This document shows, one piece after another, positions 7,133-39,412 of a DNA stretch of 64,000 nt (within the stretch, counting starts at the first letter, position 1; each line of letters opens with the position of its first letter). The notes under the pieces were generated by a model, which saw only the letters and a list, made by a program, of their open reading frames with translations, did not search any database and was not told where the DNA came from. The stretch covers positions 32,001-96,000 of the forward strand of contig CP169075.1 of the NCBI GenBank assembly GCA_041891055.1, read 5' to 3'. A program made the position numbers and the translations under genes. The DNA comes from Halorutilales archaeon Cl-col2-1. Lineage in GTDB: Archaea; Halobacteriota; Halobacteria; Halobacteriales; Afararchaeaceae.

Positions 7133-7252
7133 AGCTAACCAACATTTTCTAAATATTGTCTAGAGATGTTGGTTAGCTAGGGAGAGAAATACAATCCAAA
7201 GCGGGTGTGGTAGTCGTTGGTGTTAAGCTGGGTCAGGTGACTCAGGTTAACA
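7133..7252 (+). repeat. Composite B-linker-A repeat, copy 1
   Basis: Site B at 7133-7178; site A TGTTAAGCTGGGTCAGGTGACTCAGGTTAACA at 7221-7252. Confidence 0.95.
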
Positions 7253-7398
7253 ATACTAGTTAGAAGTTCTAACTTTACCTCACTATCCCTCGATTATAGA
7301 ATAGTTTCTAACGACCATCTGTCACTAGTTGGGTCGATTCTATCTGGCTCCGCACCTCTTTCGGTTAGGATGCCTGCGTGGTAAAGCATCGCTTTGAG

Positions 7399-8880
7399 GT
7401 CAACTACCCCACCCTACTTCGCTCACCCTGACGGGTTCGCTCGTTGAGGGTGTCGTCAGAAGCGGAGCTTCTGACTGCTCGCAAATTTACGATTTGTGAT
7501 GGGGCTTGTCGGTGGACTCCGCCTCTGACTCCATAACAGAGTACGAGACAAATCCTCGGTTCGACTTCACAGTCCCCGACTTCAGGGCAAGTTGACTGTT
7601 GCCCGTCCGCCGTGAGTCATGTAGCCCACGACGGACAAACCGCCATCCAACATTCTTCGCCGCGTTATAATCTGCATTCGCCGTCGCACCACACTTCTCA
7701 CACTCGAAGAAATCGCGCTCCGTTCGGTTGCCATCGCTCGTATGACCGCACTCACAACACCGCTTCGACGTATTCTCAGGGTCAACGTACACGACCTCGA
7801 TACCCAGTTCCTCAGCCTTGTACTCGACGTACTTGACGAGTTGGGCGTGCGCCCACTGGTGGAATTTACGCTTGCTCGGCATCGAGTCGCGGATGTGCGT
7901 CAAGTCCTCGAACGCGATGTGCGTACAGTCGTAGGCGACTGCCTCCGCGAGCAACCGATTCGACACCCTGTGCAGGTAGTCACGGTTGTACCGTTCTTCG
8001 CGGTTATCCCGCTGGACGAGTGTGCGATGCGCGGACTCGGTGCCCGTTTCTTGGAGACCACCACGAACGCGCTCGAACTCGCGGTGTTCGTGCAAGAGTT
8101 CTTTCCCGGATTCGAAGTGGGCGGTGCTGGTGACAGCGATGTTTTCGATGCCGAGGTCAACCCCGAGAACTGTCCTGTCCTCGGCGGGCGACTCGTCGGC
8201 ATCGGGTTTCGGCTTACGGAAGCCGAGATGTAAATAGTAGTTGCCGTCACGCGCTGTCAGCGTCGATTCCGTCACTTCCCACTCGTCGCTGTCGAGGTAT
8301 TGGTACTGGTAGCCGTCTTCGTCGTCGGGCAGTACCAATTCGCACCGCACTCGACTGTCGGTGGTGGCGAGGGAGACGGTGTTGTCATCGAACAGGGTCA
8401 TCGTGTTGGCGTCGTACTTCACCGTTGGAGCAGTGAACTCGGGTTTCGAGTAGTTGCGACCCTGCTGTTTGCGTTCATGAACGCCTTTCAATGCTTGTGC
8501 GGCTTGGAAGCACGCGAGGATGGCGTGTTGACTCCCGAGATGAGTTTGGTCACGAACATCGTCGTAGGCGAGCGACTGGAGTTTCCGCTTACGGGTTTCG
8601 TAGTGTTCCCAGCCGATGCCCGTGGCAATGTTTGCACCCGTGCGCCATTCGTCAATCGTGTCTTCGAGCAGGTCGGCCTGCTCAGGAGACACGGAGAGGC
8701 GCGTTATCGCGGTGCGTCTCAGGTAGTCGTCGTCCGACACACGTTCAAAGAATACCTGTGGTTACTTAATAGTTGGTGTCTGACTGGTGTGTGGGTGACG
8801 CGTTCCTCCCCGCCCTACTGCGCCACTCGCTTCGTTGCGTTGATCGTTGAGGACGGGGACTCCGCACTACCGCACAGTTG
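7399..8880 (-). mobile_element. IS200/IS605 family element, tnpB only
   Basis: Right end ...GAAGTAGGGTGGGGTAGTTGAC; left end TTTCAACTGTGCGG...GAGTCCCCGTCCTCAAC hairpin region. The left boundary is approximate. Confidence 0.85.
7487..8740 (-). CDS. tnpB: RNA-guided endonuclease TnpB
   Basis: GVDLG, AFEDL, TSKRCCECG...CEKC, NADYNAAKN. Confidence 0.95.
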   Translation of the reverse strand: MSDDDYLRRTAITRLSVSPEQADLLEDTIDEWRTGANIATGIGWEHYETRKRKLQSLAYDDVRDQTHLGSQHAILACFQAAQALKGVHERKQQGRNYSKPEFTAPTVKYDANTMTLFDDNTVSLATTDSRVRCELVLPDDEDGYQYQYLDSDEWEVTESTLTARDGNYYLHLGFRKPKPDADESPAEDRTVLGVDLGIENIAVTSTAHFESGKELLHEHREFERVRGGLQETGTESAHRTLVQRDNREERYNRDYLHRVSNRLLAEAVAYDCTHIAFEDLTHIRDSMPSKRKFHQWAHAQLVKYVEYKAEELGIEVVYVDPENTSKRCCECGHTSDGNRTERDFFECEKCGATANADYNAAKNVGWRFVRRGLHDSRRTGNSQLALKSGTVKSNRGFVSYSVMESEAESTDKPHHKS

Positions 8881-8991
8881 AAACAGACTATCGTCCCAGA
8901 GTCAAATATCACGCCTACCAGAAACCGCTCGGTAAATATTACTATATGGCGAATATGTGAGATATTCTATAGCACTCACATTCTTTATAAA

Positions 8992-9037
8992 ACTCCAAAG
9001 CAGGTGAGTGTGGTTAGTCTGGTGTTAAGTTGGTTCA
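8992..9037 (+). repeat. Partial repeat: linker plus left half of site A
   Basis: ACTCCAAAGCAGGTG...GGTGTTAAGTTGGTTCA, then unrelated sequence. Confidence 0.75.
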
Positions 9038-9099
9038 TCTACACATTATAGATTAATATTAATGTATTCAGAGAACATCAAACATATACGCTTAATCAA

Positions 9100-10776
9100 A
9101 TGAAAATTTCTTATCAGAATGCGAATCCACGCAAAGGTCACGAAAGCTACTACATCAAATTCGACGATGTCTCCAGCGCCAACACTAACTGTGTGTTAGT
9201 CGACTCCGGAAAACAAGTCGACGTTGAAAACGACTTGGACGACGACGAGTATCTCTCTGCAATACTTCTAACACACGCCCACGCCGACCACTACCAAACA
9301 CTCGTCGAGAATATCCAAGATGGGGCAGAAGTAATTATGACACCAGCTACTGCTTCTATCTTAGAGACTGTACTCTCCGAAGCCTCGAAACACTCCAAGA
9401 TAGATAACCTCGACTGGGAGAGTATAGAGGACTCGATAAAGACTGTAACCGACTGGTACGAGTTATCCTCGAATGTCAAACTACGTCCTGTACCTGCCGG
9501 TCATGTCCCTGGAGCATGTAGCTACCTGATACAGTTTGACGACGATAAACACATACTATCTACGGGAGATTTCACCTTCGACAGGGCGGCGGGATATCCA
9601 CCGATACCAGAAAACGAACTAAGTGAGATCGGTATAGACATACTCTTTCTAAACTCCTCGACCTCACAACCCGGAGAACTCACAGAATCAATAGATGCTA
9701 TCTTAGAACAGGCGATCTCCGGTAGTGATGTCCTCGTGACTGCAAGCGGCATGACCTGTGTCAAATATGTCTATCTTCTCGGACACCTAATAGAAGAAAG
9801 GGACATCAACCTCTCGGTCTCTATAGCTGGGCAAGCAGCTAAGATATACGATGACCTCGACTACGACGTACCAAACGTAACTTCGTATCCTGTCTATGAA
9901 TCTACTGACGAGGTTTTGGAGTCAGATATCTCAGTAGCAGGTCCTGAAAAGCCAGAAGAAGGGTCAAGTAAGATCTTGTTCGATGAGATAAAACACGATC
10001 CTTCAGCAACTCTCGTTCGGATACTCGCAGCTTTCAGCCGCTCGATGGAGTCGGCTAGCTGTACTGTGATGGAGTTCAAACGGGTAAATCATCCCACAGA
10101 AGATGAGATGTATAAGTTCATAGAAGATCTAAACCCAGTACATACCGTAATACAGCACGGTGGCAAGACAAAATGGGGCGACGTATTCGATTTCACTCTA
10201 ACATGGGCAGACGACGAGACCGTATCACGTGTACTGTATTCTAACGGAGACTGGGAAAAACCCGGGTGGCTCAAAGATGAGACATACGAGATGATACTTC
10301 GGAATAACAGGTCACATGGCGAGCCAGATCTCTCCGGTGTAGTTGGAGAAAATCTCGACGAGATAATGACTCCCGAACTACCTAGTCTAGAGATATCAGA
10401 AGAACCTGACTTGGAAAAAGAAGGAGTGGAGTTAGACGAGATTGCTAAAAGAGACCTTCATAGTTCGAGTGAAAACGAGGGCTTCGAAGCTGAGTCTAAG
10501 CCTGAAAAAGAAGTGAGACGTACTTCTGTTCAGAATCGGGAAGATACTGATTTCGAAGGCGAAGACGTTTCTCTACGGGATCTAAAGCAGATACTCGAGA
10601 GAATAGAAAAACAGTTCGATTCTAATTCTAATTCTGAGACCTACGAGGCTTTCGTCGTCGACACAGGCGAAGGAGGAGACTTATTAGTCCGTATTGATGG
10701 ACACACATCAGATGATTTGGATCTAGAGCACGGTCAGATCATCAATGTCTCTCTAGATAATCAAAAGAATAGATAA
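9100..10776 (+). CDS. MBL-fold (beta-CASP-like) metallo-hydrolase/nuclease
   Basis: LVDSG, THAHADH, AGHVPGA, STGDF; acidic C-terminal extension. Confidence 0.85.
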   Translation: MKISYQNANPRKGHESYYIKFDDVSSANTNCVLVDSGKQVDVENDLDDDEYLSAILLTHAHADHYQTLVENIQDGAEVIMTPATASILETVLSEASKHSKIDNLDWESIEDSIKTVTDWYELSSNVKLRPVPAGHVPGACSYLIQFDDDKHILSTGDFTFDRAAGYPPIPENELSEIGIDILFLNSSTSQPGELTESIDAILEQAISGSDVLVTASGMTCVKYVYLLGHLIEERDINLSVSIAGQAAKIYDDLDYDVPNVTSYPVYESTDEVLESDISVAGPEKPEEGSSKILFDEIKHDPSATLVRILAAFSRSMESASCTVMEFKRVNHPTEDEMYKFIEDLNPVHTVIQHGGKTKWGDVFDFTLTWADDETVSRVLYSNGDWEKPGWLKDETYEMILRNNRSHGEPDLSGVVGENLDEIMTPELPSLEISEEPDLEKEGVELDEIAKRDLHSSSENEGFEAESKPEKEVRRTSVQNREDTDFEGEDVSLRDLKQILERIEKQFDSNSNSETYEAFVVDTGEGGDLLVRIDGHTSDDLDLEHGQIINVSLDNQKNR

Positions 10777-11047
10777 CAGCAATCTAATCTTAAAAAGAAG
10801 TCTTAATTAAATAGTTATAAGCTAAAAATAACTCTAATTAAATGATAATATAGACCTATAGAGATATGAAGCTGACTGTCTAAAAGATATTATTCTATAT
10901 CTAAGTGGCTATTTATTAACTAATTACCAGTCACAAACTAAGTATCTACATCTTTATTTAAATTTTTATTTATACTATATTTATAAGTAATGTAAACCTA
11001 ATAAACTTAAAAGACAACAAAGCTGGTTTAATATGTAAAGTAAAACC

Positions 11048-11465
11048 CGATGACAGCCAGATTTGGGCAAACCTAAAAATTAAGCAATTACTTATAAAAA
11101 GAAAACCTGAAAACGCAAGACCTGACAGAGTAAGTAACTAATTATTTAGAACAAACTCTCTCACCAAGATGAAAACGCATGACAGCAAAGAGGTCAAAAC
11201 TATAATCGCAAGACATGACAGAGTAGAATACAAATACGAAAATAACACCTAAATCAAGAAAACCATAATCGCAAGACATGACAGAGTAGACGAATTATCC
11301 AGAAACCATAATCGCAAGACATGACAGAGTAAGAAAATAACAAAAATACATCTCACACCAAAACCACCATACAGCAACGTCATGGATAAATAATTAAACC
11401 GATGACAGAGTAGAATCTTACAAAAACTGAAATCACCCCCTAAACCGCAAGACATGACAGAGTAA
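11048..11465 (+). repeat. Cluster of direct repeats CGCAAGACATGACAGAGTA beside an AT-rich tract
   Basis: Full copies at about 11114 (1 mismatch), 11207, 11270, 11313 and 11446; partial ATGACAG at 11050, 11179 and 11402; AT-rich tract at about 10780-11040. Confidence 0.85.
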
Positions 11466-11660
11466 ACCGAAAAATCGAGCAAAACAACGACCTAGAAAGG
11501 GTGGGGTAATAGGCTGTTTTTGGTGGGTATGCGAATTTGGTGGTTTACGAAATACCAAAATTCGGTTTTGGCGTCTTTTTTGACCCCACGGTTTTGTTTG
11601 AGACAGTATGTGTGAGTGAGTTGTTGATGAGGCAGTTTCTCTAACTTAGTATTGATTGAG

Positions 11661-11852
11661 ATGACTGAAATCAAGACATCGGAAAAAGAGAACACAGAAA
11701 CGAAAACGATAGATCACCGAGTTCCTTTATCTGGTGTGACAGTATACGAAGACGATTATCTAGAGGTAGAGTTTTCACGAAGTGTTTTCGGAAGCGAAGA
11801 AAGGAAGGAAAGAATGGCAGACGAGTTCAGAGATGGCGTAGTATCAGTCTAA
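11661..11852 (+). CDS. Small hypothetical protein
   Basis: 63-aa acidic ORF with no recognisable motif. Confidence 0.4.
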   Translation: MTEIKTSEKENTETKTIDHRVPLSGVTVYEDDYLEVEFSRSVFGSEERKERMADEFRDGVVSV

Positions 11853-12429
11853 TAAAAAGAATACAGGGTAGTATAAAGAAGAAGGCAAAAGATAGTAGTA
11901 TAGACGATAATAGAGTAGATGGACATCATCCAGATGTAGATGTGATAGAGTAGGATGTTTCTCTAAGGGTGTTTCTATGGTGTTACGAGGGAGATATGTA
12001 TGTTAGGTAGTTTTTCGTCTCTATGGCGTTGTGAGAGGCTTTGTGAGAGTGTGAGTACGTGTGTGTCTGTAGTGGTAGTGTCTTCTACATTAGCCTTAGT
12101 GGTGTAGTCATAGTTGGTGTTGTTGACGGTGTCTCTTTTTACCGAAGCCCTCGGTCTTTCGGTCGGTCTGACTCGCTGCGCTCTGGTTTGCCCATAGGTT
12201 GTCCCAGTGCTTGCGTCGTCAGACACGAGCCGAAGAGCCCTCGCCCTTCGTGAGTCCACCGAGGGGTTGGTTTTTCGGCTACTTTACGTCAACACCGGAG
12301 ACACGAGGTTGGGTTTCTGGTTCTAGACGGTACTTTCGCGCTTCCACACAGGGTGTATAGTTGAGAGAGGTATATTGGAATTCTTCTTTGGAGGTGGTTG
12401 GGAGAAGGGCTAGACAACATTAGAGTGAG

Positions 12430-12546
12430 AGCTAACCAACATTTTCGGAGAATTGTCTAGAGATGTTGGTTAGCTAGGGGAGGATACACTCCAAAGCGGG
12501 TGTGGTGGTGTCGGTGTTAAGCTGGGTCAGGTGACTCAGGTTAACA
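12430..12546 (+). repeat. Composite B-linker-A repeat, copy 2
   Basis: Site B at 12430-12475; site A at 12515-12546. Confidence 0.95.
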
Positions 12547-12869
12547 CTTCGTCTAACTACAGTCTCGCTGTGAAGTTCCACACGCCGAAGAACATCGCCA
12601 CCTCGATCACCGTCGAAGCCGCGGAGCTTCTCGAGTTATTCCAGTGGCACGGAAACTTCTCACCGTCTCAGATCAAGGAGAACTCTGAGTTAATGGATGA
12701 GATCGAAGACGAGCTTGCTGATATTCTTCTCTACTGCATGAGCATGGCGATACACTTGGACATTGACCTTGAGGAAGCAGTCGAAAGGAAACTCGAGAAA
12801 AACAAGGAGAGGTATAATGAGGAGAGAGACGACGAGATACGTGAGGAACTAGAAGAATGGCAGGAGTGA
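12531..12869 (+). pseudogene. MazG-like nucleotide pyrophosphohydrolase, native N-terminus missing
   Basis: FHTPKNIATSITVEAAELLELFQW...EDELADILLY...KLEKNKERY; the first ~14 codons derive from site A and filler sequence. Confidence 0.8.
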
Positions 12870-12870
12870 G

Positions 12871-13896
12871 TTATTCCATCTCCACGTTCCTCATCTCCCG
12901 CCTTTTCTCTAAGAACTTAGTATGAGGATAGAGATCCTCATCGTCAGGCAAGTTAATTTTCTTCCCCTCTAACTTCTTGAACTCGTTATAGCCATTTCTC
13001 TCGGGCTCGTCTCTTACGACAATTTCGTAGTCATCTGTTATAACGAACCATCCGACATCGAACGCCCAATGGTGTAGTCTGCATAACGCGATCCCGTTCT
13101 GAATAACATCGCTCCCATTCTTTCTCTTAGGATAGATATGTGCTGCCTCTACCTCGGGGTTTCCATCGGGAGACTCTCGATTACTACCACAGACTGCACA
13201 TGTCTCGTTGTAGGCTTCCTTAACTAACTCTGAGAAAGCCGAATCTCGGGCTCGTCGTTGGGTTTGAGTGTATTCATCTCTTTCCTCGGTTAGCTGTGGG
13301 TCGTTTTTCGATGCTTCTCTTAGCTTTGACTTCTTGTCTTCAATTGACTGGTTAGAAGGTTCTACGTTTAACTCTAGCTTATCAAGAATTTCTCTACCCG
13401 AGTCTGTTATCTGACTTACGTCATCTGAACGCTTTACGAAGCCGAGAACCTGTAGCCATTCTCTGTGACGGGTAGCTACACCCGTTGAATCCATATCACA
13501 CTCTTTGAATTCGGATCTCAACAGATACTTAATCTCTTCATCAGTCATCGGCTGCTGAGTCAGCTCTAGAAGAATCTCATCGAAGCCTTTGACGCCCGAT
13601 CGGAGACCTTCGTATAGTATAGACGAGTCTTGGTTCTCAAGATAAGATTCACCTATTTCGCCTAAGAAATATTTTGAGTCGGACTCCTTTAGCACTCGAA
13701 TCGATTCTAGGAAGCTTAGGTGCCTTGGAACAGTTTCTCGACTTCTTGCTTTTGTATTCGAGAGCACCCATTCTATCAACTCTCCTTCAGAAGGAGAGTT
13801 AGATTCAACGTAATCGAGCATCTGCACCAATAGATTGAGACGGTTATTAACACCTCCATAGAACCGGTCTGCGGTCATCCGACGGTCATCAGACAT
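12871..13896 (-). CDS. HNH endonuclease with N-terminal winged-helix-like domains
   Basis: RDSAFSELVKEAYNETCAVCG, EAAHIYP, NGIALCRLHHWAFD. Confidence 0.9.
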   Translation of the reverse strand: MSDDRRMTADRFYGGVNNRLNLLVQMLDYVESNSPSEGELIEWVLSNTKARSRETVPRHLSFLESIRVLKESDSKYFLGEIGESYLENQDSSILYEGLRSGVKGFDEILLELTQQPMTDEEIKYLLRSEFKECDMDSTGVATRHREWLQVLGFVKRSDDVSQITDSGREILDKLELNVEPSNQSIEDKKSKLREASKNDPQLTEERDEYTQTQRRARDSAFSELVKEAYNETCAVCGSNRESPDGNPEVEAAHIYPKRKNGSDVIQNGIALCRLHHWAFDVGWFVITDDYEIVVRDEPERNGYNEFKKLEGKKINLPDDEDLYPHTKFLEKRREMRNVEME

Positions 13897-17007: not shown

Positions 17008-17021
17008 GCAACTCAATCTCT

Positions 17022-29909: not shown

Positions 29910-29955
29910 GAGAGATTGTCTCTAGATCTCCAGAGCGGTAGTGTGGCCTCTATTA

Positions 29956-30608: not shown

Positions 30609-33600
30609 ATGTCTGATATACAAGGGCAAATTAAGGATGCCCGAGAGGATCTCCTTGATATGTCTTTACGAAATAGATTACTTAATTTTAAGGAGTATAA
30701 AAAGAGCACGGCAAAAATAGTTAATGAGCTTCCTTCTGAAGTTTACCAACACCTAGTTATTGATCGAAATAAGATGTTATTTTTACCTCAGGGAGAAACT
30801 CTAACTTACGAGGAAATATTACCTGATATAGAAGATATTATTCAAGTTATAGAACATGATAAAACTTGTCGTCTTTGTCAAAGTGAGCCCGAAGTAATTG
30901 ATGATAAAACTGGGTTTCTAGAAGATATTAACTCTGTACAGGGTGGGGATCATGGATACGGACTGCCTATAAAAGAAATAAATGAATTATCGGATTTAAC
31001 AGAAACTGATTCAGATAGAAGAGAAGAATATTCAAATAGATACCTCCAAACACCTCATAAAGAATCAAACCTCCAAAACCGTCTATACAGTATAACAAAA
31101 GACTCTGAAGCTCTTATCGAAGATGCTGGATATAATGCTTTATATCTCGCTGTCGGGTTTCTTAAATGGAGAGAAGCAGAAGCACAGGAAGGATCTCACA
31201 AAGCTCCTTTGATTCTAATACCTGTTAAGATGGAGAGAGGTGGAGTTCGTTCTGATTTTAGCCTACAGTGGAATGGTGAAGAAATTACTGGTAATCTATC
31301 ATTAGATCTTAAGCTTTCTGAACAAGGGTTTGATCTTCCCGAGTTTACTAAGCCTGAAGAGAAAATCGAAATAAAAGAGTATTTAGAACTAATCGACGAA
31401 AATATCTCTGATTTTGATGGATGGGAAGTACTACCTGAAATACAGTTGGGCTTCTTTGACTTTACAAAGTTCCTGATGTATCAGGATCTAGATCCAGATA
31501 ATTGGCCTTCTAATCAGAAACCATCTAACCATCCATTATTAAAAGGAATACTCGATAATGAGGAAACTCTATCTAATCCTGAGCGGTTTAATGAAGAAAA
31601 AATAGATGAAAAACTATCCCCAGTAGATGTCCACAACGTTAAGGACGCAGATCCAAGCCAGATATCTGTAATTGAAGACGTAAAAAGAGGTAGAGACCTA
31701 GTGGTTGAAGGCCCACCTGGAACTGGTAAATCTCAGACTATAGTGAATATGATTGCTGAGCTTCTATCTGAAGATAAGAAAATACTTTTTGTCTCTGAAA
31801 AGATGGCTGCACTAAATGTTGTTAAAAATAGGCTTGACTCTGTTGGGATAGGTGACTTTTGCCTTGAACTTCACAGCGAAGAAGCAAATAAGTCAAAGGT
31901 TCTAAACGAATTGGAACGAGTATCTAAACTTAGTATTGAAGATCCCCATATACCTAAAGAGACCTTTCATAAGCTAGAGAGAAAACGTAAGAAGTTAGAT
32001 GAATATTCTGATGCACTTGGGTCTCCATTTGGTGAATTGAATAAAACTCCATATCAGCTATTCGGCGAAAAAGAAGAAGCATATCAGCATTTTGAAGAAA
32101 TTGGGAAAGATTTTCCTAAAATAGATATATCTAATGCAGAATCTCTATCGCCACAGGAACATACTGAATCTTTGAATACTATTAAAGAATTAAATAGCCG
32201 CCTCAAAAAAGTGCATCCTATTGAGGATAATCCTTGGTATGGATGCCATCCCGGCCAAATATTGCCTGATGAAAGAAAAGAAATAGAGGAGCTTTTACGA
32301 AATAGCACAAATTCATTAGATGAAATTAAAAAGATTAATGAGGGACTTGAGGAAGACTTCGGAGTGAAACGAGCCTCAACATTAAATGAGCTTGATAAAA
32401 GTATTGAAACTATTGAAATACTTGCTGAAGATTGGGATGTTGAACAAGAGACCCTACAGAAACCTGTTTGGAGAGATAATCCAGAAAAGGCTATGGAATT
32501 AGTAAATGATGTAGAAGAATTTCAAGATCTTCGAAGTAATCTAAGTGGGAGGGTAACTATTTCTTCAACTGAAAGTCCAGAGGAACGAATATCTAAGTAC
32601 AATAATCTACACTCCTCTTTCAAAGAATGCCTCCGCCCAGCTTGGAATGATCTAGAAATATCAGATAGACCAGAAGATATAGACGCAAAGATTGAGAGTA
32701 TTAGCGAATCAATTGATGATATTCGTAAATGGGAAAAGAGTATAAGAGAAAGTATACATACTCATAAAGCAAATAATCTTGCAGATCTTCATAATCTAAT
32801 TAAAATTACAAAACCAATCTCTGAGAGTATAAATATCCATGAAGAATTAATACGAGATTCTACCTGGAACGAAATGCCTGCTGAGGTAGAATCACTAACA
32901 GAAAAAATTGAGAAGAAAAGAAAAATTCAGAATGATGTTGGTAAAAGAGTAGATACTGAACGAATTGATAGAGATCTACCTGATTTACTCACCCGCTATA
33001 GGGAATTAAGCAGCTCATACACTAGATTTGTTCAACTGGAATGGTACAATATTAAGAGTGAAATTTCGGATCTTTATATGGGGGATGTACCTAGTAAAAG
33101 TAAGAAGATAGAGAAAGATATTGAGGAGTTAATGAAATTAGATAATTTAAAAGAAGAGTTGCAAGACTATGATGGAGAAGGTCAATATTTGTTAGAACCA
33201 GTTTGGAATGGAGTAGATACAACCCCCGAGGAGATTAGAGAGTTTTCAGAGTGGATGCTTGAGATACGTAAGGGAATTAAACGGGATCTTATTACGGAAG
33301 ATACTATTAAAATAATATCTGAAAGTAATACAAAGTATAATTTAGATATAGCTGAAGGAGAGCAAAAAATAGAAAATTTGGAGGGAGGGTTTGAGTATCT
33401 TAGTAGACTAGGTTTAAACTCAAGGAAGATATTTGAAAAAGCATCTGACGATAATGGATTAAACCATGTTTCTTTTGAGTCAATTAATCCTGTGATAAAT
33501 ATATTACAAGATATTTCAGACATTTATGTAGAAAAGGTTCCAAATGTAGTAAATAAGGTTGATAGTGACATTCAGGATTTAATTAAACTCAATGAAAAAA

Positions 33601-36299
33601 GAAAAAATATAAATAAGTCTTCGGGCGGTGACTCCTTTGGGCATATTTGGGAGGGTGAAAATAGTGATATAGAACAATTAAAAGAATTCTATGACTGGAT
33701 GTCAAAATTTGCTCAAAAACTTGATCAAGGAGAATTAACGGAAAAATCTGTAGAAGTATTTTCAAATAATTCGATGGATAGCGAGATTGAAGAGAATAAA
33801 CAAGCAATAAATAAATATAAAGATGATTTTGATGGATCAATTAGGGAACTCGATAAAAAGCTTCAGATATCTTCTGAGGAAGTTTGGGGTAGTGATATAT
33901 ATGAAGTAGAACTCGACTCTATTTCATCTAAATTAAAGACGCTTGAAAAGTCCTCTGAAGATCTAGAAACCTGGTCGAATTTCGATTATACAAGGAAAAG
34001 CACCCGTGACACTATAGCTGAACCAGTAGTTGAACTAGTTAATGAAGGAAAGCTAGCTCCTGAAGATATTGTCCCTTGCTTCAAGGGTAATTTAGCAGAT
34101 AGTCTCCTAACTTCAGTGCTAAAAGAGAGAGAGATATTAGCTCAGTTTGATGAAGAACTCCATGAAGATCGAATTAGAGACTTTCAAGAGCTAGATAGAA
34201 AAAGCATTAAAATTAACCGTAAACGGGTTATCTCTAAGCTGATAGAAAATAAACCACAATTGATGCAAGGAGCATCTAAATCTAGCCCTGTAGGCACACT
34301 ATTACATGAATTTGGAAAAGAAAGACTGCATAAGCCGATACGGGTACTTCTGCAAGAAGCTGGAGATCTAATTCAGGATCTAAAACCTTGTTTCATGATG
34401 AGCCCACTTAGCGTGGCTAAATACTTCGATCCAGGAACAATTGACTTTGATGTTGTTATTTTTGATGAAGCAAGCCAAGTACGTCCAGAAGATGCAATTG
34501 GTACTATACTTCGAGGTGATCAGCTTGTACTTTTTGGAGATACAAAACAACTTCCACCAACTAGTTTCTTTGATAATGTAACAGAGCCTCAAGACTCCGA
34601 TGAGAAATGGGAATTCAAAATGAAAAATGTTGAAAGCATATTGGATCTCTGTCGATCCTCATTACCCTCTAGACGTTTAAAATGGCATTATAGAAGTCGT
34701 CATGAATCACTCATAGCAGTCTCAAACGAGGAATTCTACGACAATGAGCTTGTAGTATATCCATCCCCTATCCAAGACTCTGAAGACCTTGGATTAGAAT
34801 TCAGACATCTCCCCGATACCACGTATGATAGAGGAGGGAGTAGTACAAATAGAGAAGAAGCTAGAAAAGTTGCCGAGGCTGCTATTCAACACTATCAGGA
34901 CAATCCATCAAAGAGTCTAGGAATAGGAACGTTTAGCCAAAAGCAACAAAATGCAGTACTGGAAGAGGTTGAAAGACTAAGAAAGGAAAATCCAGAAATG
35001 GATAAGTACTTCTCTCATGACCAAGAGGAGAATTTCTTTGTTAAGAATCTTGAAAGAATCCAGGGAGATGAAAGAGACGTCATTTTCATAAGTGTTGGTT
35101 ATGGGCGTGACTCAGACGGTAAATTACATAATAACTTCGGGCCGCTAAACCAAGACGGTGGATGGAGACGCCTAAATGTATTGATCACACGAGCTAGAGA
35201 GCGTTGTGTTGTGTTTTCAAATTTTACTGCAGACGAATTAGATGTGAAGTCATCTAGCTCAAGAGGCGTTAAAAGCTTTAAAACATTCTTAGACTATGCT
35301 GAGAATGGAAATCTTAGGTCAATTACCGAAGCTGGTAAAGACCCTGAATCACCTTTTGAAAGAAGTGTAATAAAATTCCTTCAAGAGGAAGGATATGAAG
35401 TACATCCTCAAGTAGGAAGTGCGGGTTTTAGAATAGACCTAGCTATTGCAGATCCAGAAAATCCTGGAAGATATGTTTTAGGAATAGAATGTGATGGGGC
35501 ATCTTATCACTCATCACCTGTAGCACGTGAACGTGATAGACAAAGGCAAGAGATATTGGAAGACAGAGGATGGGATATATATCGAATTTGGTCAACAGAC
35601 TGGTATAGAAATCGTGATAGAGCGAAGGAAAGCCTTGTTGAAGAAGTTGAGAAAGCACTCAACAGAGGCGCATTAACAGTGTCTTCAGATATGAACTCAA
35701 AAATAGAAGAAGATTCTGAAATAACCGAATTAGAAGATACTGAGGGATCGGATACATTCTCTTTAGAGGAATTGTCGACAAAATACGAAAAAACTCAGAA
35801 TATAGGCAAAATAAACCTGAGTAATCATAATCCTGGAGAATTATATTCACCTATTGAAGAAATAATTAAAACAGAATCGCCAATTCATACAGATCTTCTT
35901 ATTCATAGACTCGTATCCAACTCAGATGTTAGTCGGGCAGGAACGAAGATCCAAGAAACAATAAAAAAAGCAGCGGATCGGCTATCAAGGAATGATAAGA
36001 TAGAGAAGAATGGAGAGTTTTTGTACTATAAGGACAAAGAAATTGAAGTCCGAGAGCGCAAGAGTAAAAGGCTAAAAGATATAGAATGGATATCGGAGGA
36101 AGAAATTGAAAAAGGGATAAGAAAGATACTTCAGAATGAGATTGAGACGTCTAAAGACGATTTAATCAAAGAAACTTCTAGGTTATTCGGGTTTGGAAGA
36201 ACTAGTCAAGCCGTCTCAGATAGAATATCAGAGATAGTTGACAGTCTTCATTCATCAAAAAAGATAGAAGAAGAAAATGGCAAGTTACGCTTAAAGTGA
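30609..36299 (+). CDS. DUF4011-SF1 helicase-Vsr-like nuclease-DUF3320 protein (Hhe-like antiviral defence)
   Basis: LLDMSLRNRLLN, GPPGTGKSQT, FDEASQ, GDTKQLPP, IQGDERD, RRLNVLITRAR, ESPFE...RIDLAI...IECDG..YH; low GC. Confidence 0.9.
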   Translation: MSDIQGQIKDAREDLLDMSLRNRLLNFKEYKKSTAKIVNELPSEVYQHLVIDRNKMLFLPQGETLTYEEILPDIEDIIQVIEHDKTCRLCQSEPEVIDDKTGFLEDINSVQGGDHGYGLPIKEINELSDLTETDSDRREEYSNRYLQTPHKESNLQNRLYSITKDSEALIEDAGYNALYLAVGFLKWREAEAQEGSHKAPLILIPVKMERGGVRSDFSLQWNGEEITGNLSLDLKLSEQGFDLPEFTKPEEKIEIKEYLELIDENISDFDGWEVLPEIQLGFFDFTKFLMYQDLDPDNWPSNQKPSNHPLLKGILDNEETLSNPERFNEEKIDEKLSPVDVHNVKDADPSQISVIEDVKRGRDLVVEGPPGTGKSQTIVNMIAELLSEDKKILFVSEKMAALNVVKNRLDSVGIGDFCLELHSEEANKSKVLNELERVSKLSIEDPHIPKETFHKLERKRKKLDEYSDALGSPFGELNKTPYQLFGEKEEAYQHFEEIGKDFPKIDISNAESLSPQEHTESLNTIKELNSRLKKVHPIEDNPWYGCHPGQILPDERKEIEELLRNSTNSLDEIKKINEGLEEDFGVKRASTLNELDKSIETIEILAEDWDVEQETLQKPVWRDNPEKAMELVNDVEEFQDLRSNLSGRVTISSTESPEERISKYNNLHSSFKECLRPAWNDLEISDRPEDIDAKIESISESIDDIRKWEKSIRESIHTHKANNLADLHNLIKITKPISESINIHEELIRDSTWNEMPAEVESLTEKIEKKRKIQNDVGKRVDTERIDRDLPDLLTRYRELSSSYTRFVQLEWYNIKSEISDLYMGDVPSKSKKIEKDIEELMKLDNLKEELQDYDGEGQYLLEPVWNGVDTTPEEIREFSEWMLEIRKGIKRDLITEDTIKIISESNTKYNLDIAEGEQKIENLEGGFEYLSRLGLNSRKIFEKASDDNGLNHVSFESINPVINILQDISDIYVEKVPNVVNKVDSDIQDLIKLNEKRKNINKSSGGDSFGHIWEGENSDIEQLKEFYDWMSKFAQKLDQGELTEKSVEVFSNNSMDSEIEENKQAINKYKDDFDGSIRELDKKLQISSEEVWGSDIYEVELDSISSKLKTLEKSSEDLETWSNFDYTRKSTRDTIAEPVVELVNEGKLAPEDIVPCFKGNLADSLLTSVLKEREILAQFDEELHEDRIRDFQELDRKSIKINRKRVISKLIENKPQLMQGASKSSPVGTLLHEFGKERLHKPIRVLLQEAGDLIQDLKPCFMMSPLSVAKYFDPGTIDFDVVIFDEASQVRPEDAIGTILRGDQLVLFGDTKQLPPTSFFDNVTEPQDSDEKWEFKMKNVESILDLCRSSLPSRRLKWHYRSRHESLIAVSNEEFYDNELVVYPSPIQDSEDLGLEFRHLPDTTYDRGGSSTNREEARKVAEAAIQHYQDNPSKSLGIGTFSQKQQNAVLEEVERLRKENPEMDKYFSHDQEENFFVKNLERIQGDERDVIFISVGYGRDSDGKLHNNFGPLNQDGGWRRLNVLITRARERCVVFSNFTADELDVKSSSSRGVKSFKTFLDYAENGNLRSITEAGKDPESPFERSVIKFLQEEGYEVHPQVGSAGFRIDLAIADPENPGRYVLGIECDGASYHSSPVARERDRQRQEILEDRGWDIYRIWSTDWYRNRDRAKESLVEEVEKALNRGALTVSSDMNSKIEEDSEITELEDTEGSDTFSLEELSTKYEKTQNIGKINLSNHNPGELYSPIEEIIKTESPIHTDLLIHRLVSNSDVSRAGTKIQETIKKAADRLSRNDKIEKNGEFLYYKDKEIEVRERKSKRLKDIEWISEEEIEKGIRKILQNEIETSKDDLIKETSRLFGFGRTSQAVSDRISEIVDSLHSSKKIEEENGKLRLK

Positions 36300-36485
36300 A
36301 ATAAGCGTATGTCATGGATAGGATAAGAAAGGTGGAGTAAAAACACGCTTCATGGGGTTAGTACCAATCTTCGCCCATCTGTGGTAGTGAATATTCAACG
36401 CTAATTCTAGCTATACTTGGCTATTCAGTCTGGTGAATCTACTGGGATGACTAAATAGTACTGTAGAGAACGTGTCATAGAATAG

Positions 36486-36768
36486 GGCTCTGGTGAATCA
36501 CTAGACTGCGTTGGATCAAGCCACTAATTCAAAGGAGATGAAGCGGGAAGTCTCCAATGTCATGTCCAAAATTTCCCGTTTTGGAACGCTTGCGTTCCAA
36601 CATATGTGAATCGAAGATTTTCAGCTGACGAAGCTATGCTTCGTGAAGCCGTGCGTGCGCGTGCCTGGTACAGAGAATTTCGTGAACTCGTCCTGATCTG
36701 CTCTGTCTATAATATCAAACATGTCGTAAAACAGTAAATCAAGCTACGTATGGCGATTCACCAAAGCC
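36486..36768 (+). mobile_element. Internally deleted IS5-family element (MITE-like)
   Basis: Both TIRs plus the first and last transposase codons, matching 39430-40508. Confidence 0.88.
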
Positions 36769-36890
36769 ATCAGAACCATTCTGAAGAGTTCTGGGTCATA
36801 GTAGATTAAGAGCCAGAAAGTGAGTAAAGTGCGGGTCGGTTCTATTAGAAATAACGAGAGCTATATAAGGAGTCATGATAACTACGCAAT

Positions 36891-37850
36891 ATGCCAATTC
36901 TAAAAGAATATGCTGACTCCAACGAAAAGAATGGGTACTACGTCCATGCACATATTTCTGACCGAAACCATCCATTACCTCTACAAACTCCAAAAGTTAC
37001 CAGAAAGATCTACAGTGAACTTGGATACGAACCAACCAAACAAGGGCCAAATGGGGGTGTACAAGTACCCCATGATCTGACTTGGACCCTCTATAATGTT
37101 GGACTACACTGGACCGAAAATTCTGCATCTCAAGGAGATCCTTCAGAACTTGATTCTGATAACCTTCGCAAAGCAGCACAACCAGATTTGACAGAAGAGG
37201 ATATCGAATCAATACTTGAATTCGGAGAAGACTACACGGGTCAATATCAGTCCCAAGTTAGAGATCTTTTGGATGAGTTCTCTAGAGAAGGGCCTACAGA
37301 AACCGACCGTTACTTTGTAACGGAGCTATATGAAGCATCAAAGTCGTTCGGATACCTGATTAGACAGGTATTAGACAGCGACAAGATGGATACAAATGCA
37401 AAGACAAGGGAGTGGGAGTCACGCGTGAGCGAGTTCACCAGTAAAACTGGTGAACTTCAACTCGAAACGCCGGTAGCAGTCTCGGATTACCGTGAAAAGC
37501 ACGGTAAGAACGAAGTAGCGAACGTTCTATCTAACTACGAAGCGATAGATGTGGAACATCTATCCGAAGAGGAACGTGAACTACTCACTAATCACGAAGT
37601 GATTAGTGAGGACTCGGAGTTCTACATCCCCGTTTCACCAGAAACGGGTGAACGACTTCCGGTGTCACCGAGGACTCAAGAAGACCTCGAAGACGCGACC
37701 AAACTCCTAAAGGAGTTTGATCTTGAGGTTCCTGAGTCCGAGTCTACTGACTCAGAGATTAACGGGGATATCGAAGACCTCGCAAAGCACATAGCACTTC
37801 ATACAAGTGCTAATCTCGAAGAAGCCGAAGAAATCCTCGAAAGCTTCTGA
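36891..37850 (+). CDS. Hypothetical acidic protein
   Basis: 319-aa ORF with haloarchaeal composition and no recognised motif. Confidence 0.65.
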   Translation: MPILKEYADSNEKNGYYVHAHISDRNHPLPLQTPKVTRKIYSELGYEPTKQGPNGGVQVPHDLTWTLYNVGLHWTENSASQGDPSELDSDNLRKAAQPDLTEEDIESILEFGEDYTGQYQSQVRDLLDEFSREGPTETDRYFVTELYEASKSFGYLIRQVLDSDKMDTNAKTREWESRVSEFTSKTGELQLETPVAVSDYREKHGKNEVANVLSNYEAIDVEHLSEEERELLTNHEVISEDSEFYIPVSPETGERLPVSPRTQEDLEDATKLLKEFDLEVPESESTDSEINGDIEDLAKHIALHTSANLEEAEEILESF

Positions 37851-37929
37851 AAACGTCTGAGTAGCCGCCCTCCTGCTTTTTAATCATGCCCTGTTAGGGT
37901 TATGCCTGATAATATCAGCGAGCTATTAT

Positions 37930-38381
37930 CTAAAGGATAGACAGCGCGAGTTCCCCGCCCTTCCGAAAACCGCAGGTTTTCGGCTTTCGCAAATCTTTGA
38001 TTTGCGTCAACACCGTGGGCGGGGGTGAAGCGCGTGCGCTTGGCCACGTCCCTGCTTTTAAGTATCGGGACGCCCTACTATGATTTGGAACCCCACGTTA
38101 TCGGCCTCGCAAAACCCGCGCACCTGACGGGTAAGACGCGGTGCGCCGGGCCTGTGTCGCGCCCACGTGAAGGGGCGGACGCCCACGGACACACCCGCCA
38201 CGGCAGCAACAGACGACCTCTGTTGCGGTGGCATTCCCGGTGTGTTCGGGTGTTACCGGTTCCACGCGAGTCCCCGCTGGGGACGAGCGCGGGCGGAATT
38301 AAATTCGCCACCGGTCGTTTCGCTGGGCTCGTGCCAGAGACCACAGCGAAGCCACGGGCCACCGCGCCCGTGGTACTTCAC
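37930..38381 (+). mobile_element. Non-coding IS200/IS605 derivative with a structured RNA-like 3' part
   Basis: Follows TTAT; left-end hairpin; internal TATA-like TTTTAAGTA; ends CCCGTGGTACTTCAC; homologous to 19184-19723. Confidence 0.75.
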
Positions 38382-38616
38382 GTGTGCGGAAGTTATTACG
38401 TGGTAGAAAATGACCGATATACTGTAGGGCGGAACTTTTGATACCCTTGATTAACTGTTACCACAATTGCAGACGTAGAAAACGAAAACGACCGGTTCAG
38501 ATATCTATACAATCTATCATCCAGAGTGTATCACTATCCCAGTCTCTGAGTATAAATTAATACCGCCCCCGACAACCACCTATACTTTATATGTTAAAAG
38601 AACAACTTACTCGTGA

Positions 38617-39351
38617 ATGTTCGAGGCTAGCATCAACGCTGGAGTGCTCCAGTCCGGATTAGATACGGTAGAGAACCTCGTCGACGAGTGTAAGGTTCGT
38701 CTCAAAGAGGATGAACTCTCGATACAAGCTGTGGATCCAGCGAACGTCGGTATGGTCGATCTCTCTATACCTGCTGAGTCTTTCGAGTCCTACAACGGAG
38801 ACAACGAAGTGATCGGTCTCAACATAGAACGTTTCATGGATATCATCGGGATGGCGAACAAAGACGACACGATAGATCTTGAACTCGATCCCGAAACTCA
38901 CAAACTCAAGATACACGTCGAGGGACTGCATTATACTCTTAGTCTTATAGATGCTGACGCTGTTCGACAGGAGCCCGATGTCCCGGATCTAGATCTATCA
39001 AGTGAAGTTGTTGTGGCTGGTAGACAGATAGACCGTGGTGTAAAAGCATCAGGTATGGTGAGTGACCATCTGGAGTTAGGTGTCAACGGTAACTTCTACA
39101 TGCACGCTGAAGGAGACACAGACGACGTGCGTATCGATCTAGATGAGGAGGAGGTTGTTGATCTAGAGGGTGATGACGCACGTTCTATGTTCTCTCTTGA
39201 CTACTTAGAGGACATGTCGAAGGCTATACCCAAAGACGCTCAAGTCAGGATGGAGTTAGGTATCGATCATCCGACTAAGATGCATTTTGATGTCGGGGAT
39301 GGTTCGGCTGATGTTACGTATCTACTAGCTCCTAGGATTGAGAATGAATAG
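38617..39351 (+). CDS. pcn: DNA polymerase sliding clamp PCNA
   Basis: LVDECK, AVDPANVGMVDL, SMFSLDYL, YLLAPRIE; 244 aa. Confidence 0.96.
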   Translation: MFEASINAGVLQSGLDTVENLVDECKVRLKEDELSIQAVDPANVGMVDLSIPAESFESYNGDNEVIGLNIERFMDIIGMANKDDTIDLELDPETHKLKIHVEGLHYTLSLIDADAVRQEPDVPDLDLSSEVVVAGRQIDRGVKASGMVSDHLELGVNGNFYMHAEGDTDDVRIDLDEEEVVDLEGDDARSMFSLDYLEDMSKAIPKDAQVRMELGIDHPTKMHFDVGDGSADVTYLLAPRIENE

Positions 39352-39352
39352 A

Positions 39353-39412
39353 ACTCTCCAGAGCGGGGGTGGATTGTTGGTGTTAAGCTGAGTCAGGTGA
39401 CTCAGGTTAACA
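39353..39412 (+). repeat. Partial repeat: linker plus site A, directly after the PCNA stop codon
   Basis: CTCCAGAGCGGGGGTGG...GG, then TGTTAAGCTGAGTCAGGTGACTCAGGTTAACA (39381-39412). Confidence 0.9.

Follow-up and report, generated by a model that had tools for sequence, protein, structure and literature searches.

A mosaic two-palindrome repeat at the junctions of gene blocks in a plasmid-like replicon of a Halorutilales archaeon

In a 64,000-nucleotide stretch of DNA from Halorutilales archaeon Cl-col2-1 (hereinafter the window), copies of a short palindromic repeat lie at the exact abutment of unrelated gene blocks, raising the question of whether the repeat makes these joints, moves on its own or travels passively with its neighbors. 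A first-pass annotation had answered with an integron-like model for positions 7133-39412, in which each unit comprises a wide inverted repeat (B), a linker (L) and a 32-bp palindrome (A) of loxP/dif-like size. The four full copies of ~118 bp and two partial ones on which it relied are real (Table 1): the full copies, all on the + strand, align at 91-95% identity to the copy at 7133 (blastn), and 100 shuffles gave an expectation of 0 matches as against 5 observed. The proposed limits of the island did not survive genome-wide mapping, which places further copies elsewhere in the window and on other contigs of the genome. The single orientation reported earlier applies to the full and partial copies of the window but not to contig C2, where eight of nine composite or sub-composite copies run B to A on the + strand and one (C2:20894-20965) is inverted. 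Likewise, the flanks are in general unrelated, as claimed, but alignment with flanks uncovers 20-100 bp of extra homology to the left of B in some copies.

The division into B, linker and A is confirmed by alignment. B is a 46-bp palindrome with 13-bp arms (AGCTAACCAACAT and ATGTTGGTTAGCT) around a spacer of 19-21 bp; the linker measures ~41 nt; and A has 15-bp arms and a 2-bp center, its central 8 bp being palindromic apart from GG. A is identical in all four full copies and differs by 1 base at 39381-39412. While the composite unit does exist, it is one form of a three-part mosaic, the parts of which also occur as B alone, L+A alone, B+L without A, B followed by 60 nt, L and a variant of A, and B+A without L (C2:96143-96223, a form also present in metagenome run X3).

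Table 1. Positions of the repeat and its parts in the window
Feature	Position	Strand	Composition, evidence and context
Full copy 1	7133-7252	+	B 7133-7178, linker 7179-7220, A 7221-7252; repeat search and alignment
Full copy 2	12430-12546	+	B 12430-12475, linker, A 12515-12546; repeat search and alignment
Full copy 3	25852-25970	+	B 25852-25897, linker, A 25939-25970; repeat search and alignment
Full copy 4	26741-26860	+	starts 12 bp to the right of an ORB-like box belonging to the predicted origin
Partial copy	8990-9036	+	linker motif and left half of A; ~60 bp upstream of the MBL-fold gene
Partial copy	39350-39412	+	linker-like stretch and A; directly 3′ of the PCNA gene stop
B alone	1203-1247		directly 3′ of an integrase gene fragment (886-1086)
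B alone	2082-2128		abuts the ATG of a 115-aa minus-strand gene
B alone	63227-63276		between the convergent 3′ ends of Mrr-like and HNH genes
Truncated B	62021-62027	+	left arm reduced to AGCTAAC
A-like palindrome	58864-58895		inside the ParB_N-HTH-methyltransferase gene 58433-60010

The cargo named by the first-pass annotation is upheld by Pfam, which recognizes the MBL-fold protein, HNH, an AAA_5/EVE McrB-like gene, a UvrD and PD-(D/E)XK AddAB-like pair, helicases and PCNA, and an origin spans 26456-26729, with ORB-like boxes at 26456-26537 and 26700-26729. Several copies sit tightly against neighboring features: the open frame of a MazG-like gene (12531-12869) begins within A of copy 2, 9 bp separate the end of A in copy 4 from a DUF2240 stop codon, and an insertion sequence begins 18 bp beyond the partial copy after PCNA. 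The same L+A as in that partial copy recurs 3′ of an integrase gene at C1:1302928-1302990, with ~20 bp of right flank in common, and the flank preceding the truncated B continues into a complete B in three C1 paralogues.

The two palindromes differ sharply in distribution. This genome has 28-30 B sites and ~10 A sites, which concentrate on C2, on C3 and in three islands of C1; the 28 paired copies of B (18 on C2, 9 on C1 and 1 on C3) mostly stand alone. Among 401 Halobacteriales genomes, the B arms are found in 33, including 15 of the 18 of one genus, as against a single genome matched by a reversed control pattern, whereas A is found in two and is confined to this genus. A search of viral contigs matched neither palindrome. 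Elsewhere the arms of B are conserved over 12-13 bp while the spacers are unrelated sequences of 20-22 nt, which in the other genera are not AT-rich. Fixed arms around a spacer that is free in sequence but constant in length suggest a protein-binding site, the protein presumably reading both arms on one face of the helix. B would be an old and widely shared haloarchaeal plasmid palindrome and A a younger one, the symmetry of which appears to be kept by compensating changes: five of its 14 stem pairs are altered on both sides and 92% of cells remain paired, a level equaled in 7 of 500 shuffles. The A-like palindrome of the window, which by eye agrees with A at 26 of 32 bases, also stays symmetric among three paralogues of its host gene despite amino-acid changes.

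A possible role for the repeat emerges from where homology ends between paralogous segments, the congener G001 and related metagenome strains. Synteny does break at A: at copy 2, homology with G001:C74 crosses the element and stops 1-2 bp from the right edge of A, and in the metagenome strains X1 and X2 (both from one study) the end of the same A (joint at 12547) is connected to different DNA, these strains being without 13053-18388, i.e., the HNH and McrBC block starting just right of A. Of ~11 non-insertion-sequence homology segments between C2 and C1 or C3, a small and partly redundant set, at least six terminate no more than 7 bp from a B edge. Of 456 homology endpoints in other genera, which are not independent of one another, 15 fall within 10 bp of a B edge as compared to an expectation of 0.74%. 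Close relatives differ in having or lacking entire blocks that terminate in the repeat or in a lone B. The element is involved in four of six indels between G001:C7 and C1:531-546 kb: a ~950-bp VapB/PIN cassette ending A′-L′-B′ in G001, which has its empty site in this genome; a toxin-antitoxin cassette and a B-like site placed right beside a resident B; and two G000-only segments, 2,081 and 1,985 bp long, each of which carries a B. The breakpoints coincide with the outer edges of B and A, none being in the central spacer, and in two indels they lie 50-60 bp beyond B. The congener assembly is itself fragmented at these repeats and has little of the window's cargo in common. Taken with the whole-unit gain and loss of cassettes, these breaks support the earlier proposal that the repeat partitions modules, and the repeat probably either marks or creates the joints where gene blocks are swapped. 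Accordingly, our best explanation, which we offer tentatively and at somewhat less than an even chance, is that the 118-bp repeat is a genus-specific two-palindrome mosaic that functions as a junction element in a plasmid-like replicon, presumably through breakage and joining at or beside its palindromes.

The mechanism originally proposed, with A as a loxP/dif-like crossover, B as an accessory site and direct copies driving integron-like capture, A-to-A excision and shuffling, fares much worse. The cores of loxP, dif and FRT consist of inverted arms of 11-13 bp around an asymmetric spacer of 6-8 bp that sets direction, and attC sites are imperfect palindromes with R and L boxes, extrahelical bases and an unpaired spacer at their center. 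The direct orientation of the window's copies and the tyrosine-recombinase genes beside B or L+A would suit such a model, and integrons have been reported from archaea (10.1101/2022.02.06.479319). Integron cassettes resemble those described here in their terminal palindrome and in being small, often toxin-antitoxin units gained or lost whole, and one insertion beside a resident site and the nearby tyrosine-recombinase genes add to the likeness. However, A offers a 2-bp center in place of an asymmetric spacer, and this center is GG in copy 4 but CC in its orthologue G001:C77:3743-3863, from which it follows that A alone has no fixed direction; with its spacer of 19-21 bp, B is no such core either. 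Nor does either palindrome have the identity of an attC site, B folding into a perfect 13-bp stem and A into a stem with a single internal mismatch and no extrahelical bases. A PF00589 scan of the genome returned 11 matches, those near the elements being ~200 aa, with no IntI-type integrase seen; nor was an attI or a uniform cassette orientation seen, the cassettes pointing toward the element from either side. The breakpoints lie at or beyond the outer edges of the element, and three metagenome runs showed no A-to-A deletion, circle or joint, albeit as contigs, which cannot show rare circles and so constitute weak evidence; the sole backward joint in them (12547 to 10891) is not repeat-to-repeat. 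Consequently, we regard the loxP/dif-like, integron-like model as improbable.

The main rival to a junction element is a mobile repeat of the PATE/SMR type, without a transposase of its own and mobilized by an enzyme acting in trans, perhaps via single-stranded hairpins, with the partitioning of cargo being incidental. We rate it as rather unlikely, though deserving serious weight. Across seven copies from two species, four from this genome and three from G001, identity over the whole repeat, including the non-palindromic linker, is 91-99%, and the ends are sharp against unrelated flanks; for instance, copy 3 and G001:C74:3960-4078 are 99% identical despite theirs. In eight copies aligned with their flanks (five from this genome and three from G001) there is neither a terminal inverted repeat nor a target duplication, in agreement with the first-pass view that this is not a classical MITE, and no flanking duplication is seen when B by itself is treated as an element of 46 bp bounded by 13-bp inverted ends. 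Both ends fold into stable hairpins: as single-stranded DNA, B of copy 3 is predicted at -11 kcal/mol (z -6.7) and A at -9 kcal/mol (z -5.6), A being more stable on the + strand, which has a G-T pair where the - strand has a C-A mismatch. Mobility through such single-stranded hairpins would explain the orientation shared by eight of the nine C2 copies. The genome also houses more than 30 TnpB-type loci and one Y1 transposase, and another hairpin-rich element of 536 bp (19184-19719), different from the repeat, is a clear insertion missing in X1 and X2.

These features agree with PATEs (palindrome-associated transposable elements) as defined for Haloquadratum walsbyi in PMC3119063, where they are non-autonomous and related to IS200/IS605-IS1341 elements: haloarchaeal, short, non-coding, without terminal inverted repeats or target duplications, with palindromes close to or at each end, of insufficient length for a transposase and found among many TnpB elements. 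They part from that outline in that the palindromes here are terminal rather than subterminal, no autonomous element has matching ends, B has a 20-nt loop and crosses genera with free spacers, and the parts occur in many combinations (PMC3119063). The small mobile repeat SMR-A of Haloquadratum, as described in the same account, is similar in being ~110 bp, lacking target duplication and a known transposase, and lying within other mobile DNA, but it has prominent terminal inverted repeats, whereas the termini here match weakly (6/8, by eye), and it targets the palindromes of PATE/IS605 elements, a preference with no parallel here (PMC3119063). Further points speak against self-mobility. The TnpB insertion sequence adjoining copy 1 has its ends at 7399 and 8882, beyond the repeat; coordinate comparison finds no TnpB locus abutting B or A; and the sole Y1 transposase adjoins a different hairpin family, away from both. 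The one clean empty site found belongs to a cassette, and none was found for the bare unit. A conserved target of 4-5 nt, of the kind next to which PATEs insert, is not apparent at either border, the left borders reading AAG, GAG, AAT, CTG and CAG and the right borders varying, although several copies share extended flanks and hence are not independent. Finally, the free recombination of parts (B alone, L+A, B+A) and the cross-genus occurrence of B with free spacers are unlike copies made from one master.

Alternatively, the palindromes might be cis-acting protein sites for plasmid maintenance or control (operators with promoters, or parS-like or ORB-like sites) that were brought along with modules and have no role in recombination. 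As such sites lie in intergenic DNA, this would account for the repeat at module ends, and the invariant arms of B across genera around a free spacer are typical of a protein site. One subfamily of B (4-5 copies) has a TATA-like run in its spacer ~29 bp from the abutting ATG of the 115-aa gene, as at 2082-2128 (spacing read from sequence). Further, both Orc1/Cdc6 genes of C2 form ori-orc modules that are each bracketed by two B sites, Orc1/Cdc6 homologues occur in the B neighborhoods fetched from 10 of 15 other genomes, and several genera have B at the 3′ ends of their orc genes. parS sites are palindromes recognized by ParB-type HTH proteins and often lie also within the parB gene, as chromosomal ones can; the A-like palindrome in the ParB_N-HTH gene, with symmetry kept among three paralogues, is reminiscent of this. 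Inverted repeats linked to Orc1/Cdc6 are likewise a feature of haloarchaeal ORB/orc origins as outlined in PMC3528665. While B shares that link to orc genes, it is without the G-string of these published ORBs and its 20-bp spacer is not rich in AT in the other genera (PMC3528665), and the ORB-like boxes are separate from B, both at the canonical ORB-type origin adjoining copy 4 and 5′ of the orc gene at C2:97539; B was thus rejected as a haloarchaeal ORB.

Two further kinds of intergenic repeat invite comparison. Bacterial REP and BIME sequences bind proteins and lie between genes, convergent ones included. According to the outline in PMC2817692, extragenic palindromes of at least two types are connected in them by conserved linkers into mosaics, and the B/L/A forms do combine palindromic units with a linker motif in this fashion. 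REPs and BIMEs, however, run to hundreds of copies, as compared to ~30 here on a plasmid-like contig and islands of an archaeal host; we rejected full membership since the copy number is too low and no REP-associated Y1 transposase lies nearby. The intergenic repeats of haloviruses HF1 and HF2, as sketched in PMC7230728, carry promoter elements and lie between gene blocks of a haloarchaeal mobile genome, but are long, AT-rich and viral, and by that description are set apart from the present repeat. Against a pure binding-site role, all kinds of context are represented among the sites of B and the composite, convergent 3′ ends among them (63227-63276; G001:C7), which leaves no room for a single transcriptional role. 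Moreover, binding alone leaves unexplained the homology that ends a few bp from palindrome edges, the truncated B and the identity of the 41-nt linker at loci that are otherwise unrelated. Hence, we consider this alternative unlikely.

Yet another reading takes the composite as a small RNA gene, with B as promoter and the linker with the A hairpin as a ~70-nt transcript. The B spacer does contain a CGAAA/TATT-like run ~25 bp upstream of the linker (read from sequence), the A hairpin is the more stable one on the + strand, and linker+A without B follows two genes. On the other hand, Rfam returned no family match (best E-values 0.0086-0.9, all under gathering scores), no T-run follows A, and the center of A flips while its arms co-vary in the manner of a DNA palindrome, even inside a coding region. 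An RNA gene would also leave unexplained both B standing alone in 33 of 401 genomes and the behavior at junctions, making this the most doubtful reading, with very little to recommend it.

Returning to the junction element, B might be held by its binding protein, and A might act as a hairpin or cruciform or as the site of a symmetric dimer. Breakage and joining at or beside the palindromes could then be carried out by a site-specific or hairpin-dependent recombinase, for which we can name candidate enzymes, or could alternatively follow from replication stalling at a bound or extruded palindrome. The outcome would be the exchange, insertion and deletion of cassettes carrying toxin-antitoxin, defense, integrase and ori-orc genes. 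Some observations weigh against this proposal: no product between two copies was seen in the metagenome contigs, which cannot show rare circles; breakpoints at outer edges or 50-60 bp away are not where tyrosine recombinases cut; and the near-identity of copies at unrelated loci fits self-mobility at least equally well.

As to possible partners, and as a further point against the proposal, the distribution of B across the 401 genomes singles out neither the small integrase nor the 115-aa gene as specifically co-distributed with it. The small recombinase family is present in 267 of these genomes as against 33 for B and is therefore not specific to B, which also undercuts the integron-like mechanism, and the closest homologues of the small integrase come from the B-less genomes G358, G336, G112, G262 and G400. 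The 115-aa gene is found in 223 of the 401 genomes, but not in G001. Judging from gene context, the plasmid-type Orc1/Cdc6 proteins encoded by the B-bracketed genes are candidate partners, and the ParB_N-HTH-methyltransferase, with an A-like palindrome in its own gene, is a candidate partner of A. The ~200-aa tyrosine recombinases encoded beside B or L+A are also candidates: four of the five small tyrosine-recombinase genes or fragments in this genome have B or L+A within ~120 bp, and the order int-B-P on C3 is a circular permutation of the order B-P-int on C2.

The repeat comprises, in each of its four full copies (see table), a wide palindrome B of ~45 bp (AGCTAACCAACAT, 20 nt, ATGTTGGTTAGCT), followed by L, a ~41-nt linker containing ACTCCAAAGCGGGTG, and, 3′ of L, the 32-nt palindrome A (TGTTAAGCTGGGTCA GG TGACTCAGGTTAACA). 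Repeat searches and alignments confirmed the four full copies reported in the first-pass annotation, and the alignments likewise upheld its two partial copies. A is identical across all four full copies and, allowing up to three mismatches, has five matches in the window as against none in 100 shuffles. Folded as single strands, B reaches -11 kcal/mol (z -6.7) and A -9 kcal/mol (z -5.6). Rfam has no family matching the repeat, and a small-RNA gene is the lowest-ranked of our readings and highly improbable. In eight copies aligned with their flanks, no terminal inverted repeat and no target duplication is visible, on which ground we rejected a MITE. We also discarded a TnpB guide RNA or insertion-sequence end, considered for copy 1, which is separated by 235 bp from the 3′ end of a TnpB gene: the C1 copy of that element (92–98% identical; C1, C2 and C3 denote contigs of the source genome, C2 holding the window) places its ends at 7399 and 8882, and hence the repeat lies outside it. 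A MazG-like pyrophosphohydrolase frame (12531-12869) has its GTG start within the A palindrome; the repeat has either displaced the original N-terminus or provided the start.

The three parts also occur separately. B standing alone is far commoner in the genome than B within the composite. Paired-arm copies number 28 (18 on C2, nine in three C1 islands and one on C3), or 30 with a looser pattern. A-like palindromes occur at ~10 loci, and the linker motif is found at variable distances after B or paired with A alone. Further arrangements include B and A without L (C2:96143-96223, with the same short form also in the metagenome run X3), B or half-B with L and no A, and B followed by 60 nt, L and a diverged A (C1:1046089-1046240). 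Eight of nine composites or sub-composites on C2 run from B to A on the + strand, the inverted exception being C2:20894-20965. A second wide palindrome, P, lies beside B and shares its geometry of short arms and a ~20-nt spacer. At C1:1330164-1334263, three tyrosine-recombinase genes stand in series beside a tRNA-Glu gene (C1:1335055-1335129), and copies of B, L and A at C1:1326636-1328423 are found 2–8 kb away, the locus being an island with a recombinase trio.

Features of the window and of related loci (window coordinates unless prefixed with a contig)
Feature	Position	Strand	Details
Full repeat copy 1	7133-7252	+	
Full repeat copy	12430-12546	+	
Full repeat copy	25852-25970	+	
Full repeat copy	26741-26860	+	
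Locus with palindrome P beside B	C3:7423-8260; C2:27418-28229		CCCCGAGG, 21 nt, CCTCGGGG
Hairpin-rich segment	19184-19719		536 bp; missing in the X1/X2 strain, robust joint with 255 letters each side
Short-hairpin arrays	26010-26225; 19544-19640; 30039-30086; 39672-39719		6-9-bp stems, ~one per 30 nt
Rfam sot0042 match	4402-4561	-	88.4 bits against gathering 88; 3′ end of second TnpB gene (4440-5783)
Predicted replication origin	26456-26729		inverted boxes 26456-26486 and 26507-26537, opposed box 26700-26729; G-string ends
AT-rich stretch with direct repeats	10780-11490		five ~22-nt repeats (AATCGCAAGACATGACAGAGTA) at 11111-11486; 10-12 kb bin 38.5% G+C
Defence-type cluster (Pfam names)	41365-54369		SNF2/PLD-like helicase (1350 aa), GmrSD, DUF1156 methylase, DUF7680, DUF499 protein
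B pair around Orc1/Cdc6 gene	C2:97037 and C2:98899		gene C2:97539-98882
B pair around Orc1/Cdc6 gene	C2:20918 and C2:22893		gene C2:20958-22277
A-like 32-bp palindrome	58864-58895		HTH-proximal part of ParB_N-HTH-N6/N4-methyltransferase gene (58433-60010)

The whole B-L-A unit is found in 2 of 41 relatives searched, namely the source genome and its congener G001, the latter with three full copies, and A is likewise genus-restricted (2 of 401 Halobacteriales genomes). The B arms, searched with a 20–26-nt gap and at most two mismatches, are present in 33 of the 401, including 15 of 18 of one genus, as compared to one genome matched by the reversed control pattern. A single genome has as many as 12 copies, and many copies are on small contigs. 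To judge from this distribution, B is old and widespread. Across genera its arms are near-invariant, and the spacer keeps its length although no sequence relationship is seen, from which we infer a putative protein site whose two half-sites are some three helical turns from each other. Such sites might be passive, one being brought along by each module, a third-ranked reading that we consider unlikely. A promoter or operator role would suit one B subfamily at best; other copies are located where two convergent genes end. A differs from B in its behaviour: among nine variants of the A stem, both members have changed in 5 of 14 pairs and 92% of the cells remain paired, which 7 of 500 shuffles equal, and the GG at the centre of copy 26741 reads CC in the orthologous copy of G001. 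Neither the B nor the A pattern has an exact match among viral contigs, and a search of 8.4 million papers and preprints with the B arm sequence returned nothing relevant, so that by this route we found no mention of B in print.

The case rests chiefly on how the repeat behaves at junctions. Comparison of C2 with C1 and C3 shows at least six of ~11 non-IS homology segments terminating no more than 7 bp from a B edge, positions that by our estimate for 18 sites make up ~0.5% of C2. A flank that in three C1 paralogues leads into a complete B is continued at 62021-62027 by AGCTAAC only, and then by unrelated DNA. Copy 12430 has its left flank and the element itself in common with a G001 contig (C74), the two diverging within 1–2 bp of the A end. 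In X1 and X2, metagenome runs with related strains (one study, ~120–170x depth), contigs proceed from position 12547 through six other letters to 10891 onward, and 13053-18388, comprising the HNH and McrBC genes that start right of A, is uncovered. Depth in these runs is also raised over 10891-12385, which together with the backward joint 12547->10891 would be consistent with this 1.66-kb module being tandemly duplicated or present as a circle. A further joint, 7112->12427, is attributed to sequence divergence in the flank left of copy 1 and not to a deletion, and insertion-sequence ends are involved in the joints 26251->12333 and 26251->7399.

The congener offers a second view of such junctions, its contig C7 being syntenic with C1:531-546 kb apart from six indels. 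One is a ~950-bp VapB/PIN cassette of G001 ending in its counterparts of the three parts (A′-L′-B′), with an empty site in the source genome; another is a 580-bp toxin–antitoxin cassette followed by a degenerate B, inserted immediately beside a resident B. Two segments found only in the source genome (2,081 bp and 1,985 bp) have one B inside each, that of the first being 57 bp from the segment edge; the remaining two are a replacement from which B is absent and a 532-bp hairpin element. The order on C3 is integrase-B-P. The 0.7-kb integrase segment recurs on C2 with B-P at its opposite side, a circular permutation opening at the outer edge of B. Copies of CTCGGGG are present on both sides of the integrase-B-P segment on C3. 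In loci drawn from 15 further genomes, 15 of the 456 homology endpoints fall within 10 bp of a B edge as against 0.74% expected, an excess that is a hint, the endpoints being highly redundant. No empty sites for the window's own copies were found in G001, because almost none of the cargo is present there and its contigs are broken at the repeats.

The comparative evidence thus supports one part of the first-pass proposal, the partition of the region into exchangeable modules, which between the copies would span 7253-12429, 12547-25851, 25971-26740 and 26861-39349. Its other part, A as a tyrosine-recombinase crossover working in an integron-like manner, is very unlikely, as the geometry and symmetry of A are those of neither a loxP/dif-type core site nor attC. 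Our first-ranked reading, which we hold tentatively, is a palindromic junction element at which cassettes would be joined. More specifically, though this is doubtful, B (GCTAACCAACA - ~21 nt - TGTTGGTTAGC) might be the boundary and recombination site of an undescribed haloarchaeal plasmid cassette system, integron-like in its working and unrelated to integrons. Under such a system, modules such as ori–orc replicons, toxin–antitoxin pairs, integrases and defence genes would have B on either side and be swapped at the edges of B, and within this genus the 118-bp B-L-A unit would elaborate on B by adding A as a second protein site, possibly read by a candidate ParB-fused methyltransferase.

Ranked second, and somewhat improbable, is a self-mobile repeat akin to PATEs and SMRs, the transposase-free small mobile repeats known from Haloquadratum. 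The repeat does agree with the descriptive definition of a PATE in PMC3119063; however, the genome has no autonomous partner with shared ends, and its sole Y1 transposase goes with another hairpin family. Part of the hairpin-rich segment 19184-19719 is also found beside this single Y1 (IS200-type) transposase, and a 98% identical copy of the segment (C1:533097-533642) is missing at the G001 counterpart. The segment, a member of that hairpin family, is a clean insertion with respect to X1/X2, and probably a PATE-like one. A ~510-bp module recurring beside B in another genus contains two small function-unassigned ORFs and no transposase. Among the short-hairpin arrays, a ~70-nt piece at ~26110-26190 is present in 16 haloarchaeal plasmids of many genera at 80–86% identity, mostly in unannotated DNA; it was the only part of the query 25800-27400 to match PLSDB plasmids, the repeat itself being unmatched.

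Haloarchaeal plasmids and islands are notoriously mosaic, and to our knowledge little is known of where and how their modules are joined beyond insertion sequences and tRNA-linked integrases. The most interesting by-product of this analysis is B itself, a conserved haloarchaeal plasmid palindrome that brackets ori–orc modules. It provides a concrete, searchable DNA signature, present in 33 of 401 sampled genomes, and lies at module edges as well as alongside toxin–antitoxin and defence cassettes in which close relatives differ. Should recombination take place at B, or should B mark a boundary, this would explain the assembly of defence islands such as the present one (McrBC, AddAB-like, GmrSD and methylase clusters) and help to predict where cassettes end; as a protein-binding maintenance site or a mobile repeat, B would still represent a previously unlisted repeat family. 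Contigs of G001 end at the repeat, and the family accordingly breaks assemblies.

Several proteins were considered as candidate partners of B or A. On C2, each of the two Orc1/Cdc6 genes lies between a pair of B sites, homologues of the first and second occur in B neighbourhoods in 10 and 8 of 15 other genomes, respectively, and several homologues have B at the gene 3′ end. The idea that B serves the linked Orc proteins as their ORB was rejected, since it lacks a G-string and canonical ORB-like boxes are present separately; B may yet have a looser Orc-binding role. Genes or fragments of ~200 aa tyrosine recombinases in the source genome have B or L+A within ~120 bp in four of five cases; two of these small recombinases are encoded at C3:7423-8037 and C1:1302285-1302908. 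This small integrase was nevertheless dismissed as a B-specific partner, its family being present in 267 of 401 genomes with the nearest relatives in B-less ones; only one genome among its close homologues (G326) has a B-like palindrome, 11 bp past the gene. A 115-aa protein whose ATG abuts B was dropped as a specific binder, being present in 223 of 401 genomes and not found in G001. The A-like palindrome in the ParB_N-HTH-methyltransferase gene is kept in three paralogues, where compensating changes alter the encoded residues, and may be a self-site for the protein. GANTC-type motifs lie within it, and A has GANTC-like motifs too. A gapless alignment to a bacterial ParB_N protein led us to reject an in-frame insertion of the A-like stretch.

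The source organism is a member of the Halobacteriales, and the window spans C2:32001-96000. C2 is a 116-kb contig of 49.6% G+C alongside the 1.935-Mb C1 (55.4% G+C) and two small contigs. Its terminal 1.47 kb is 99.8% identical to the C1 end (C2:114533-116000 versus C1:1933563-1935030), and a second shared end is 90% identical (C2:1-423 versus C1:231-650). Thus, the contig breaks fall within repeats, and instead of a proven separate replicon C2 may be a piece of the assembly. Plasmid matches, relatives and Pfam families of the window are haloarchaeal throughout, with the within-genus comparison being to one congener genome, G001. Pfam supports the cargo recognized earlier (MBL nuclease; HNH, McrBC and AddAB-like genes; helicases and PCNA), and the predicted origin also stands, with boxes at 26456-26537 and 26700-26729 flanking an AT-rich stretch. 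By eye these are ORB-like and resemble, G-string included, the haloarchaeal ORB of PMC3528665. No orc gene adjoins this origin, the nearest genes being a small ORF and a DUF2240 gene. The segment 10780-11490 looks like an iteron-type origin. An RNA at the 3′ end is expected for IS1341-type elements, and the sot0042 match fits that place. The defence-type cluster lies right of the repeat-bounded region.
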